This document shows, piece after piece, positions 20,837-59,502 of a stretch of 64,000 nucleotides of DNA. How positions within the stretch are numbered: position 1 is the first letter of the stretch; each line of letters begins with the position of its first letter. The stretch is from a virus. Lineage: Duplodnaviria; Heunggongvirae; Uroviricota; Caudoviricetes. The DNA is taken from the IMG/VR virus record IMGVR_UViG_3300045988_138358; one strand, written 5' to 3'. A model generated the notes under the pieces. It had not been told where the DNA came from and did not search any database. It was given only the letters and a program-made list of their open reading frames with translations. Position numbers and translations under genes: made by a program.

Positions 20837-20868
20837 TTGTTCTCAAATTGTTCTCAAATTGTTCTCAC
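20837..20868 (+). repeat. parC-like centromere: three tandem 11-bp repeats (TTGTTCTCAAA)
   Basis: Seen directly; further TTCTCAAA copies near 20903 and 20989; upstream of parM. Confidence 0.6.
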
Positions 20869-21020
20869 TTCTATCCAAGTGCCCGGCAGGCGATTAAAGA
20901 TATTCTCAAAACAACCTCAATTATGACTCTTATTTATCTCTAATTATGTGGATTTTCGATGCCTCCTCTTTTAAAATCATGATTTGATTCTCAAATGTGT
21001 CTCAGAAGTGGAGCAAGAAG

Positions 21021-21977
21021 ATGCGCATTTTTATCGACGATGGTTCAACAAATATCAAAATGCTGTGGGAACACGACGGGGAAACTCGCACGCACATCAG
21101 CCCTAACAGCTTTAAGCGCGGATGGTCAGCAACATTTGGTGCTGGCAAGCCATTTAACTATGTCATTGACGACGAAAAGTATTCGTATGATTTGATCTCG
21201 CCAGATGTTCTGCCGACGAATAACGTGGAATGGCAATACAGCCCGCTTAACGTCCTGGCTGTTCACCACGCCCTGCTGACAAGTGGCATTGAGCCGCAGG
21301 AAGTAGAAATTGTGGTTACGCTGCCACTGGCGGAGTTTTACGACGACGACGCGCAATACAATCTCGATAACATCGAGCGCAAGAAAGCCAGCCTTATGCG
21401 CCCCGTCACGCTGAATAAAGGCAATGTATTCACGATTAAGAAAGTTACGGTACGCCCGGAGTCTATTCCGGCAGGAATTGGCCTGTGCGACAATCTGACC
21501 CCTGCCCACTCTGTTCTTATCGTCGATTTGGGTGGAACTACCCTTGATGTTTCAATGGTCGCCGGGCAAATGACGGCAGTTTCCCGTGTTTTTGGCGATT
21601 CGAATCTTGGCGTCTCTCTGGTTACCAGGGAAGTAAGGCAAGCACTTGCCAGAGCCAATACCGAAACGTCAAATTACAATGTCGATCAGCTCATTATTAA
21701 CCGCCACGATGAAGATTATCTGAACGACAATATCAATGACCCATCAGCTATTGGTGATGTGAAAAAGGCCATTGCTGCAAGTATTGACCGTCTGCGTACC
21801 CGCGTTCTTGATGTGATTGGCGATTTTAAAGGATATACGCATGTCATGGTGATCGGTGGCGGCGCACCGCTGGTGGCTGATGCAATTCGCGAGCAAGTTA
21901 ATATTCGCGATGACCGTTTCTTCGTGGCGGATGACCCGCAACTTGCTCTTGTTCATGGCCTGAAAGCAATCGGTTAA
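21021..21977 (+). CDS. parM: actin-like partition ATPase ParM/StbA
   Basis: ORF track 20997-21977 starts at GTG; ATG at 21021 has GGAG upstream. N-terminus MRIFIDDGSTNIK..ISPNSFKR closely resembles R1 ParM as I recall it. Confidence 0.75.
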   Translation: MRIFIDDGSTNIKMLWEHDGETRTHISPNSFKRGWSATFGAGKPFNYVIDDEKYSYDLISPDVLPTNNVEWQYSPLNVLAVHHALLTSGIEPQEVEIVVTLPLAEFYDDDAQYNLDNIERKKASLMRPVTLNKGNVFTIKKVTVRPESIPAGIGLCDNLTPAHSVLIVDLGGTTLDVSMVAGQMTAVSRVFGDSNLGVSLVTREVRQALARANTETSNYNVDQLIINRHDEDYLNDNINDPSAIGDVKKAIAASIDRLRTRVLDVIGDFKGYTHVMVIGGGAPLVADAIREQVNIRDDRFFVADDPQLALVHGLKAIG

Positions 21978-21983
21978 CGAGGT

Positions 21984-22328
21984 ATGTCCATGTCTCAGGA
22001 ACGTAAGAAAGTGATGATTTATCTTCGCCCAGGGGCTTATGCCAATGAAAAGGCGGCGAGCGAGAAGATAAAAAAACATAGCGATATGGCAAGAACTGCA
22101 TTGTTGGCAGGGCTTGCGCTGGGAGAAGTCGATAGCAGGCTTCCTGGATTACTGGCTTCCCTGCTGACCGAAGACAATAACCCGGAGCAGATCCGAAAAA
22201 TGCTGGCATCCTTCCTGGAATTACCTGCTGCTGTTGAGGAGCACCCTGCCGCCATTGAGCCAGCGAAGGAGCAAGTTGTTGCCAAAAGCGTGTCGGCGCG
22301 TAATCTTGCTGATTCTCTACCTGATTGA
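21984..22328 (+). CDS. parR: partition adaptor ParR-like
   Basis: ORF track 114 aa, immediately downstream of parM. Confidence 0.55.
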   Translation: MSMSQERKKVMIYLRPGAYANEKAASEKIKKHSDMARTALLAGLALGEVDSRLPGLLASLLTEDNNPEQIRKMLASFLELPAAVEEHPAAIEPAKEQVVAKSVSARNLADSLPD

Positions 22329-22347
22329 TGGTCAAAACTCTATTTTA

Positions 22348-22372
22348 AGGCTGCAAATTGCAGCCTTTTTTG
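22348..22372 (+). terminator. intrinsic terminator after parR
   Basis: Hairpin AGGCTGCA..TGCAGCCT followed by a T-run. Confidence 0.6.
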
Positions 22373-22575
22373 TTCCTTTTTGGTGTTAAAATGGCATCAA
22401 AGCGACACCAAATGGGCGTCGTTAATGTACTGGTGCATACTTGGTGCTAATTTAGTGCTATTCAGGCGCAAAACGTGTACCAGTATCCATCGGATTTGAT
22501 GTTATACTTCCGGCATTAAGAATGGTGCTATTGCTGTACCGTTGATGTGTAAAAGTGGTGCCGTTTTAGTGTAAA
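22372..22575. repeat. dispersed GGTG(C/T)TA and GTACCAGT motifs upstream of parA
   Basis: About eight copies seen directly; candidate centromere/operator for the ParA-RHH pair. Confidence 0.45.
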
Positions 22576-22600
22576 AATAGAGCCAAAATAAAGCCGAGGT

Positions 22601-23248
22601 ATGGACATGATTATCCTGGTAGCAAGTCAAAAGGGAGGCTGTGGCAAGTCAACCACCAGCGTCAATATTTGTGCCGAGCTGGCCCGAAAAAACAAAGATG
22701 TCGTCTTGATTGATGCTGATAAGCAGGGAACGGCAGCTCGATGGGCGTCAGACCGTAATTCGTCCGAAGTGACACCAGTTATTCATTGCGTCCAGAAGTT
22801 TGGAAATATTCGAGAAACTCTGCTCGATCTTAACAATCGATATGAATACGTGGTTGTTGATACCGCAGGTCGTGATAGTAAAGAGATGCGCACAGGTATA
22901 ACGGCGGCGGATATTCTATTGGTTCCATTCAGGCCGTCTCAGCCAGATTTGGACACGCTGGCACACTTTGTTGAGGTGTTTGAAGAGGCTTTGGATCTGA
23001 TGCCTAATCCCAATATTAAGGCGTGCGCAGTCTTAACTATGGCCCCGTCAAATCCGGTTGTGAATGAAGCAAATGAGGCCAAAGAGTATCTGGCAGAATA
23101 TCCGCAACTGAAATTGCTGAAAACCATTATTCGCGATCGCAAGGTTTACCGCGACTGCATGGCTGAAGGAAAGGGTGTTGTTGAGATGGATAACGGTAAG
23201 GCGAAAGGTGAAATTCAGATGTTAGTTAAGGAGTTGCTAAGTGATTAA
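22601..23248 (+). CDS. parA: small ParA-family partition ATPase
   Basis: ORF track 215 aa; deviant Walker A KGGCGKST; ATG and SD confirmed. Confidence 0.75.
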   Translation: MDMIILVASQKGGCGKSTTSVNICAELARKNKDVVLIDADKQGTAARWASDRNSSEVTPVIHCVQKFGNIRETLLDLNNRYEYVVVDTAGRDSKEMRTGITAADILLVPFRPSQPDLDTLAHFVEVFEEALDLMPNPNIKACAVLTMAPSNPVVNEANEAKEYLAEYPQLKLLKTIIRDRKVYRDCMAEGKGVVEMDNGKAKGEIQMLVKELLSD

Positions 23249-23525
23249 ACGTCGAGAACCAGCTAAAGCGCCTAAGGCTACTGATCCGGAACTTGAGCGA
23301 AGAATTGAAGAGTTCGCCAGCAAAGCGGATTTAATCCCGGATGAAATTACAACGGGGAAGGTGCTTGATAAAGATGCGCCGCGCGACTTTAAATCCATAC
23401 GCGTGAGCTTTAATGAATATGAGTACGGGGTGCTCGATGCGTTAAGCAAAAAGCTTAACCGCAGCAAATTGAACCTGATTCGACATGCCATCCTCATGCT
23501 TGCTGAGTCAGAGGATGCTAAATGA
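23241..23525 (+). CDS. RHH DNA-binding partner (ParG-like)
   Basis: ORF track 94 aa; overlaps the parA stop. Confidence 0.45.
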   Translation: MIKRREPAKAPKATDPELERRIEEFASKADLIPDEITTGKVLDKDAPRDFKSIRVSFNEYEYGVLDALSKKLNRSKLNLIRHAILMLAESEDAK

Positions 23526-23644
23526 TACCGATTTGATGCCTTATTGGCGTCTATCGTGTACCAGTGCAATAATGTGTCAAAGTGGTGCCATAATGGTGTT
23601 AATATACAGCCATATTGATATCAAATTGACACTGTATCGGCATC

Positions 23645-23669
23645 AAAAAGCCCCAGGCGGGGCTTTTTC
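23645..23669. terminator. bidirectional intrinsic terminator between the parA-RHH pair and dam
   Basis: GC hairpin flanked by A-run and T-run. Confidence 0.6.
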
Positions 23670-58307: not shown

Positions 58308-58383
58308 TGGTGGCCCCTACCGGACTTGAACCGGTGACCGTGCGATTATGAGTCGCCAGCTCTAACCACTGAGCTAAAGGGCC
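58308..58383 (-). tRNA. tRNA with CAU anticodon (Ile2 lysidine-type or Met)
   Basis: Hand-folded cloverleaf, 7-bp acceptor stem, T-loop TTCAAGT, CCA encoded; close to E. coli ileX as I recall it. Confidence 0.75.
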
Positions 58384-58392
58384 AGATTACTG

Positions 58393-58521
58393 TTAATTCC
58401 GCTTACGCTTTTTGCCAGAACCGCGTAAGGCTTTTGCCGCTTGCTCGATCCCATATGCAACCACCAGCAGAAATAAAAATGTCCAACCAGGGTTCTTATC
58501 GGCAAAGGCCCAAAAATCCAT
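58393..58521 (-). CDS. small hydrophobic protein, 42 aa
   Basis: Hand-found; one hydrophobic helix and basic tail; ends 10 nt before the CAU tRNA. Confidence 0.25.
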   Translation of the reverse strand: MDFWAFADKNPGWTFLFLLVVAYGIEQAAKALRGSGKKRKRN

Positions 58522-58572
58522 CACTTGCAGCTACCTTTTAAGACAAAACGCCATTGCTGTTAGATTGCGGTG

Positions 58573-58587
58573 CCTGGTGCCTCCAGG
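58573..58587. ncRNA. short hairpin CCTGG-TGCCT-CCAGG
   Basis: Second of three hairpins with identical loop and covarying stems. Confidence 0.3.
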
Positions 58588-58795
58588 TGACGTTAACCAG
58601 TTAACAATTAACGCCGGGATGTTTGATTTAACCACTAAGGAGGATTGTTTTAACTGTTCCGCGTGCGCTTAGCCGCATTCACCGCAATGGTAAGAGCACT
58701 TGGCTGGCTGGGCGGCGATGACGCCTGTACGCATTTGGTGATCCGGTTCTGCTTCCGGCATTCGCTTAATTAGCCAAATACTCTTAACGTTGCGC

Positions 58796-58882
58796 TGGCG
58801 GAGAGTAATGGAATCGAACCATCATCGCTTGCGCAATGGGACGGTTTTCAAGACCGCTTGAGCACCATGCTCCCTACTCTCC
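58796..58882 (-). tRNA. tRNA-Ser-like (UGA anticodon, long variable arm), divergent
   Basis: Hand-folded: 7-bp acceptor stem, anticodon loop CTTGAAA, long variable arm, T-loop TTCGATT, discriminator G, CCA encoded; D-arm unusual. Confidence 0.55.
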
Positions 58883-59028
58883 GGCCGTTGTGGTGGCCGG
58901 TACTGAATCTCCGGCATACGGTGCAGCCAATTAGGACTACGGACGATCACCGCTCGCGAAAGGGAAGATTTGCGGCCGCATTTCCCTAACATCCAAGAAA
59001 GCTATCGCATCAGTCTGCGAATCCACCA

Positions 59029-59118
59029 CAACGTTGAGAACACTGGTTGTCACGCTGCAACGCAACATTTATTCGTAGATTGGGATATGACCCCGTTACG
59101 TCAGTGTTCTCAACGTTG
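59029..59118. ncRNA. long hairpin: perfect 17-bp inverted repeats around a 56-nt interior
   Basis: Arms at 59029-59045 and 59102-59118 are exact reverse complements. Confidence 0.4.
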
Positions 59119-59265
59119 TAGTACCGGTTACGGTTCCGGCCAGGCCTCTTCCTCAACGGGGTATTCTCCATACGGACTACCGTTTATTGGTCGTTCCTGC
59201 GGTTTATGTTGTGAAGCCAGATGCTTATCTTCTGGTTGCTTCAAAGAGCTGCACTTCATCACAAC

Positions 59266-59339
59266 GGTAAGGGTACTTCGTAGGGATTCGAACCCTCTGC
59301 CAAGCACGGCGATCTCCGACGTCGCAAAATACCCTTACC
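59266..59339 (-). ncRNA. tRNA-like element: 10-bp closing stem around a canonical T-arm, no canonical cloverleaf
   Basis: Closing stem GGTAAGGGTA/TACCCTTACC with internal T-arm-like hairpin; I could not fold it as a standard tRNA. Confidence 0.35.
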
Positions 59340-59347
59340 TGTTGTGT

Positions 59348-59423
59348 TGGTGCCGATTAACGGACTCGAACCGCTGACATCCTGCTTACAAGGCAGGCGC
59401 TCTACCAACTGAGCTAAACCGGC
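59348..59423 (-). tRNA. tRNA-Thr (UGU)
   Basis: Hand-folded cloverleaf; anticodon loop CTTGTAA; T-loop TTCGAGT; CCA encoded. Confidence 0.75.
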
Positions 59424-59425
59424 AT

Positions 59426-59502
59426 TGGCGATGGTGGGTGGATTCGAACCACCGACCGACAGCTTAGAAGGCTGCTGCTCTATCCTACTGAGCTACACCA
59501 TC
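59426..59502 (-). tRNA. tRNA-Arg (UCU)
   Basis: Hand-folded cloverleaf; perfect 7-bp acceptor stem; anticodon loop CTTCTAA; 2 nt from tRNA-Thr. Confidence 0.75.

Follow-up and report, generated by a model that had tools for sequence, protein, structure and literature searches.

Several large plasmids carry two partition systems. The actin-type (type II) parMRC system of plasmid R1 has a centromere, parC, of ten 11-bp iterons, and pB171 has a double locus in which par1 (parMR) adjoins the type Ib system par2 (parAB), with parC1 and parC2 laid out on both sides of the parA operon. A 2026 survey counts 971 PLSDB accessions that combine a type I ribbon-helix-helix (RHH) system with a type II system, and it refers to pB171 (Ebersbach and Gerdes, 2001; Ringgaard et al., 2007), R27, and the Shigella virulence plasmid as precedents (PMC13245405). 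For the D6-like plasmid pYU39_89, cop, parA, stbB, and parM are given as partition functions (PMC6799933). In the GenBank record of Escherichia phage D6, StbA and StbB are named, orf60 is a "possible ParA," and orf61 is "hypothetical." Here, we analyzed the corresponding locus in a stretch of 64,000 nucleotides (IMG/VR record IMGVR_UViG_3300045988_138358; hereafter the window, meaning the whole stretch), which is a D6-like (P1-related) phage-plasmid of E. coli. Our data make it likely that this low-copy plasmid prophage is kept in both daughter cells by two tandem partition cassettes, each independent and self-contained: a ParMRC of the R1 type and a ParA-RHH pair.

The initial annotation of the window, made from the sequence alone, had called the adjacency of both types unusual. 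This is contradicted by the D6 annotation, the pYU39_89 list, the pB171-type loci common on IncF plasmids, and the PLSDB accessions; judging by those accessions and by the pB171, R27, and Shigella precedents, the two types together are ordinary for large enterobacterial plasmids. The pairing of ParMR with ParA-RHH was thus already known from the D6 record and pB171, and conceptually the locus offers nothing beyond the double par precedents of pB171 and R27. Modest new points are that the centromere-binding protein (CBP) is assigned an RHH fold and that an unnamed type Ib family shares a conserved iteron code.

Organization of the par locus

All four genes (parM, parR, parA, and the RHH gene) were found where they had first been placed. 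The extent initially given, 20837-23525, holds at its start but not at its end; the parA-side repeat field continues past 23525, with iterons running on to 23634 and a terminator to 23668, so the feature is 20837-23668. The start codons of parM (21021), parR (21990), and parA (22607) were adjusted in the light of Shine-Dalgarno spacing and of how D6 is annotated. The features of the locus, in window coordinates, are as follows.

20837-21008, plus strand: ParR iteron field, parC-like (Tandem Repeats Finder [TRF], 11-nucleotide register table, shuffle test, core positions)
20972-20977, plus strand: candidate -10 box (TAAAAT) of the parMR promoter (from a conserved block)
21021-21977, plus strand: parM, actin-fold segregation ATPase of 318 amino acids (Pfam, PDB, identity to R1 ParM)
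21990-22328, plus strand: parR (StbB type), predicted centromere-binding adaptor of 112 amino acids (Pfam PF10784, PDB 2jd3, phrog_8671)
22347-22373 (hairpin 22347-22367), plus strand: intrinsic terminator ending the parMR operon, with a 9-bp stem, AAT loop, and T-run
22381-22585, no strand assigned: upstream iteron field of the ParA-RHH cassette (register, shuffle, site positions)
22500-22508, plus strand: candidate extended -10 promoter (TG-T-TATACT) of the parA operon (from a conserved block)
22607-23248, plus strand: parA, small type Ib Walker ATPase of 213 amino acids (Pfam, NCBIfam, PDB ParF)
23241-23525, plus strand: gene for a predicted centromere-binding RHH protein of 94 amino acids (profile alignment, AlphaFold)
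23534-23634, no strand assigned: downstream iteron field (register, shuffle, site positions)
23645-23668, no strand assigned: bidirectional terminator between the RHH gene (plus) and dam (minus), -15 kcal/mol

An R1-type ParMRC cassette

ParM matched the Pfam StbA_N domain (1.7e-69; 233 bits) and the ParM C-terminal domain (5.5e-55; 186 bits) and aligned over its full length with R1 ParM in the PDB (E = 1e-110; 54% identity). The product of parR, directly downstream, matched Plasmid_stab_B (PF10784; 43.9 bits with a cut-off of 25), the pB171 ParR structure (PDB 2jd3; 1.5e-6 over residues 4 to 76), and phrog_8671. The 2jd3 match gives this adaptor the N-terminal RHH DNA-binding domain of ParR proteins. 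These matches bear out the first identification of the pair as an actin-type ParM/ParR system.

The tandem 11-bp repeat reported upstream of parM is real: TRF detected the unit TTGTTCTCAAA at 20837-20867 (2.8 copies, 100% match). It belongs to a larger field made up of three iteron blocks, the first with three perfect 11-bp units of TTGTTCTCAAA (20837-20869), the second with four phased units whose CTC[AT] cores start at 20905, 20916, 20927, and 20938, and the third with two units (cores at 20990 and 21001) just 5' of the parM Shine-Dalgarno sequence. Altogether, 9 to 10 CTC[AT] cores in an 11-bp phase span 20837-21008. Six pairs of cores were spaced at +11, versus 0.04 in dinucleotide shuffles, and the cluster is the sole one of its kind in the 64 kb. 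Across six D6-like loci the cores are kept and the spacers vary. Between blocks 2 and 3, TTTTAAAAT is invariant in the six loci, and we read it as containing a putative -10 box of parMR (TAAAAT). As is characteristic of a parC, the field is an array of direct repeats upstream of the operon and around its candidate promoter, and ParR is predicted to bind it. Downstream of parR, a hairpin with a trailing T-run folds at -13.5 kcal/mol (z = -4.3); it does not vary among six family members and substantiates the terminator proposed to lie between the two systems.

A ParA-RHH cassette flanked by phased iterons

The second cassette starts with a 213-amino-acid ParA that has a deviant Walker A motif (KGGCGKST, residues 9 to 16) and is without an N-terminal DNA-binding domain. 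ParA scored above the Pfam cut-off for CbiA, AAA_31, and MipZ and matched ParF (PDB 4dzz; 1e-17), in agreement with its original description as a small Walker-type ParA; it is also 42 to 44% identical to the ParA of pB171-type and IncK/IncI-type plasmids. NCBIfam ParA_partition was its best-scoring model by far, though below threshold.

The adjoining gene has a GTG start and a good Shine-Dalgarno sequence and overlaps parA by 8 nucleotides. Its 94-amino-acid product had no match in Pfam, PHROGs lists the family as unknown function, and every record examined labels it "hypothetical." A simpler homology search gave close relatives only; an exhaustive HMMER scan yielded 125 representatives. The AlphaFold model used here was built on a 61-sequence alignment (predicted local distance difference test [pLDDT] score, 85.5) and replaced an earlier, poor AlphaFold2 model from 12 close sequences (pLDDT, 60). 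It comprises a helix (residues 16 to 29), an extended segment, and two further helices (59 to 72 and 76 to 91), and the protein can be divided into a basic N-terminal tail (MIKRR), the first helix, a linker, and a C-terminal RHH (strand at ~52 to 57 plus the last two helices). Among close relatives R5 does not vary, and across the 61 aligned sequences both R5 and F25 are nearly invariant. The alignment of the family profile to CopG and HP0222 coincides exactly with strand-helix-helix, and single family members match RHH Pfam families only. Together with the model, these alignments confirm the RHH fold and agree with the earlier description of an RHH partner of ParA.

The initial annotation had also ascribed to this pair a repeat field of its own, with GGTG(C/T)TA and GTACCAGT as its motifs. 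The field is real, but the two motifs proved to be two spellings of one iteron, an 8-bp pseudo-palindrome, TRGYRCYA, plus three A/T bases, which recurs on either side of the parA-RHH operon and keeps strictly to an 11-bp register. Upstream, ~14 units form three 11-bp-phased blocks (22381-22410, 22431-22482, and 22523-22585), with perfect TRGYRCYA sites at 22442, 22453, and 22523; downstream, ~8 units form two such blocks within 23534-23634, with a perfect site, TGGTGCCA, at 23583. Four of the 18 perfect sites in the whole window lie in the ~350 bp that make up these fields, and GT[GA]C pairs at +11 numbered 3, versus 0.03 in shuffles, a value above that of every shuffle. TGnTATACT (22500-22508), between upstream blocks, is conserved in six of six D6-like loci and may represent an extended -10 promoter of the parA operon. 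Repeat arrays next to the operon, of the sort that serve as both centromere and operator in type Ib systems, are thus present, and they are predicted to be bound. The closing hairpin (23645-23668) follows the downstream field.

The ParA-RHH cassette at distant loci

When one genome per species was scanned with the RHH family, 28 loci were recovered. Their hosts include Sodalis, Serratia, Rahnella, Chimaeribacter, Kangiella, Moraxellaceae, Kushneria, Zhongshania, Methylococcales, Berkiella, and Entotheonella. A ParA homologue ends where the RHH gene starts at every one of the 28 loci, with an identity of 57 to 70% in nearly all; one is 37% identical, and one is truncated by a contig edge. No ParM or ParR was present within 3 kb of the cassette at any of the 28. 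On contig3 of Rahnella sp. PCH160 (L016 and L018), the cassette occurs at ~5.5-11.8 kb and again at 191.4-197.7 kb of a 198-kb contig, close to its two ends and with identical scores; the contig is probably a circular replicon whose ends overlap in the assembly.

Iteron statistics were computed for the window and 22 of the 28 distant loci. The density of the core motif was 20.9 per kb in the cassette flanks versus 3.8 per kb elsewhere in the loci, a 5.5-fold difference. Same-strand core distances peaked at 11, 22, 33, and 44 bp (19, 24, 17, and 13 counts, respectively), with counts of 0 at adjacent distances and the others scattered; successive units were spaced by 11 bp in 36 instances and by 22 bp in 14. 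In the consensus of 133 units, the spacer is ~90% A/T, though its positions lay outside the search pattern. In most loci, iteron sites flank the operon on both sides.

In PLSDB, the RHH protein is encoded by 153 plasmids, always adjoining a ParA and always as a "hypothetical protein"; ~150 plasmid records could thus be reannotated as encoding a partition protein. On the ordinary Aeromonas plasmid pS44-2, the cassette lies ~800 bp from repA. Among 50,697 phage records, D6 was the sole carrier. Given its presence on ordinary plasmids and at distant loci and D6 as the only phage carrier, the cassette appears to be a mobile plasmid partition module captured by the D6 lineage. Module capture, also raised by the initial annotation, fits both the 28 unrelated loci that have ParA-RHH without ParMR and the recombination breakpoints inside the locus described below.

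A named equivalent of this ParA-RHH family was not found in our literature search. The system of Psychrobacter pP62BP1 was considered and rejected; it is of the ParG type with 8-bp AATACTCA repeats. The par system of the Agrobacterium plasmid pTAR, with palindromic repeats in a 10-bp register, is a possible parallel. Tentatively, as an idea that we find plausible rather than probable, the cassette may define an unnamed, widespread type Ib family with an unusually conserved centromere code on both sides of the operon, ranging from Enterobacterales to Methylococcales, Moraxellaceae, and Entotheonella metagenome-assembled genomes; in that case, no phage lineage other than the D6-like elements would have acquired it and put it in tandem with an R1-type ParMRC. 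If so, the conserved iteron code would contrast with the usual rapid divergence of centromere specificity. Annotation pipelines label the plasmid ParA (3501-4145 in L003 and L004, two IncF plasmids; 22607-23248 in the window) "AAA family ATPase" or "division plane positioning ATPase MipZ." With ParA so named and its partner "hypothetical," name-based surveys will miss the cassette.

Selection and recombination at the par locus

For estimates of dN/dS, we compared the window with D6 and three diverged plasmids (L001, L006, L007, and L008). The ratios were 0.01 to 0.05 for parM, 0.00 to 0.05 for parA, and 0.06 to 0.11 for the RHH gene; for parR they were mostly 0.07 to 0.26, the one exception being a near-identical pair whose few changes leave the ratio uninformative. 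Purifying selection acts on all four genes, and no frameshifts were present in six loci. A sensitive blastn search with the 3-kb region found at least 80% of the query in 112 PLSDB plasmids, and both cassettes are retained together in nearly all D6-like plasmids.

The closest relative varies by gene: L008 or D6 for parM, L006 or L007 for parA, and no close one for the RHH gene. Because of these changes from gene to gene, recombination breakpoints are placed inside the par locus. The intergenic iteron fields likewise exist as several alleles in which the cores are kept, and the CBP tail and linker are also mosaic among D6-like elements.

A model for two cassettes and its alternatives

In the model that we favor, ParR dimers would coat the 11-bp iterons flanking the parMR promoter and repress the operon, and the ParR-parC complex would cap ParM filaments, by which sister plasmids would be pushed apart. 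RHH dimers may bind the TRGYRCYA arrays every 11 bp, on one DNA face and on both sides of the operon, forming a partition complex; since the upstream array brackets the candidate parA promoter, we propose that the RHH protein autoregulates. Its basic N-terminal tail could stimulate nucleoid-bound ParA-ATP, and a diffusion ratchet would space the plasmid over the nucleoid. The terminator would insulate the parMR operon from the parA-RHH operon. DNA binding, autoregulation, ATPase stimulation, and plasmid stabilization by either cassette are expected here by analogy.

Several observations weigh against this model. A consensus promoter scan, which requires a -35 box, called no promoter for either operon, and for this reason the parMR and parA promoters are placed only from conserved blocks. 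Neither the 94-amino-acid protein nor any of the 61 family members matched ParG (Pfam PF09274), and similarity between this protein and the pB171-type ParB was not detectable (BLASTP E = 0.12). ParA reached 161.9 bits with NCBIfam NF041546, the ParA_partition equivalog, versus a cut-off of 180; its name in the Prokaryotic Genome Annotation Pipeline (PGAP), "AAA family ATPase," follows from that score. Experiments on D6-like par genes were not found in the literature searched, the scope of which did not extend to the D6 genome paper. Finally, conservation shows selection on both cassettes, not partition activity of both.

In one alternative reading, only one cassette partitions, and the other is kept for a different reason, for example as a backup against a co-resident plasmid that titrates the same centromere type (e.g., an IncF plasmid with a related ParMRC) or for use in particular hosts. 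SCP1 has two intact par systems, of which a single one mattered in laboratory conditions (PMC13245405). Moreover, ParMRC loci of the R1 and pB171 types abound on E. coli plasmids (1972 records with parM-like DNA), and the mosaic CBP tail, linker, and iteron fields of D6-like elements could be taken in the same sense. However, both cassettes are intact, strongly constrained, and nearly always kept together. We consider this reading unlikely, and it refines the two-cassette model rather than contradicting it.

Considerably less probable is a role of the ParA-RHH pair outside partition altogether, with the RHH protein acting as a repressor on operator arrays and the ParA-like ATPase positioning or regulating the phage cycle, or with the pair controlling copy number. 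RHH proteins are mostly repressors, the top fold matches of this one are antitoxins and regulators, and its gene is called cop in pYU39_89 (PMC6799933); the subthreshold ParA_partition score points the same way. Yet the cassette resides on nonphage plasmids, where it can adjoin repA, and D6 stands alone among the phage records. In addition, 8 to 22 phased sites on both sides of an operon typify centromeres rather than simple operators, and the identity of ParA to its pB171-type and IncK/IncI-type plasmid counterparts argues for partition. That one cassette is a decaying recombination relic with repeats arisen by chance, an idea to which the mosaic neighborhood, the presence or absence of glnS, and the IS91 insertion in L002 (see below) might lend itself, is effectively refuted by purifying selection (dN/dS of 0.01 to 0.26 in nearly all comparisons, other than the uninformative parR pair), open frames in all six loci, and repeat statistics far beyond those of shuffles.

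Genomic neighborhood

The classification of the window as a D6-like phage-plasmid follows from close nucleotide identity and from its P1/D6-type neighbor genes. The 3-kb region is 92% identical to phage D6 over parMR and 99.4% identical over its whole length to the E. coli plasmid NZ_CP122510 (L002). The locus is a plus-strand island flanked by two minus-strand phage operons of P1/D6-type virion and DNA modification genes: a PAAR/upfC-like gene and upfB lie to one side, and dam, a cytosine methylase gene, rdgC, and baseplate genes lie to the other. The 64-kb window has no second homologue of ParA or ParM. Four tRNA genes (Met-CAT, Ser-TGA, Thr-TGT, and Arg-TCT) cluster at 58308-59502 on the minus strand.

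The region beyond the RHH gene is variable. In phage D6 and plasmid pEHP91H1-2, a glutaminyl-tRNA synthetase gene (glnS) comes directly after the RHH gene (L001, 9096-10757; L007, 4597-5826). The window (23526-23668), L002, L006, and L008 are without glnS, and there the downstream iterons lead to the terminator and then dam. The downstream iteron allele tracks the presence or absence of glnS. In NZ_CP122510, the plasmid closest to the window (L002, 9869-13126), an IS91-family transposase gene replaces the dam and cytosine methylase genes of the window, and rdgC is shortened.

Since E. coli, Salmonella, and Shigella commonly carry D6-like phage-plasmids, the persistence of these elements is of practical interest. 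Two insulated segregation machines with likely binding sites bear on prophage stability, incompatibility with co-resident plasmids, and curing.

Comparison with known partition systems

The closest counterpart is phage D6 itself, in which orf58 to orf61 (MF356679; Gilcrease and Casjens, 2018) are the same four genes in the same order with the same terminator; ParM, ParR, ParA, and the RHH protein are 99, 94, 93, and 78% identical, respectively. D6-like plasmids make up PLSDB rep_cluster_1704. D6 differs in having glnS after orf61 and in its intergenic iteron fields, which are different alleles.

The ParA-RHH cassette resembles TP228 ParF/ParG/parH and pSM19035 delta/omega in its small ParA, its RHH CBP (a dimer whose N-terminal tail is flexible), and its arrays, which would double as an operator. 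It differs from both in that no ParG match was obtained and the repeat is an 8-bp palindrome in an 11-bp register. The first cassette is like R1 parMRC in the full-length similarity of ParM, in having parR directly downstream, and in its ~10 iterons of 11 bp upstream of and around the promoter. Unlike in R1, however, the iteron sequence is another one, the blocks are arranged as 3 + 4 + 2, and ParR is detectably similar to the pB171 ParR structure only.

As stand-ins for pB171, we used IncF plasmids L003 and L004, which carry the pB171-type double locus and whose ParR is ~97% identical to PDB 2jd3. Compared with this locus, ParA and ParM of the window are each 42% identical and ParR is 32% identical, while the CBPs are not detectably alike; ParM is thus closer to that of R1 (54%). 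The two loci share adjacent type II and type Ib systems, ParA proteins of 213 (window) and 214 amino acids, CBPs of 94 (window) and 91 amino acids, and CBP sites both up- and downstream of the parA operon, those of the window being predicted. Whereas the operons of pB171 are divergent and cross-regulated from one shared control region, those of the window run in tandem on the plus strand, separated by a terminator and each with iterons of its own.

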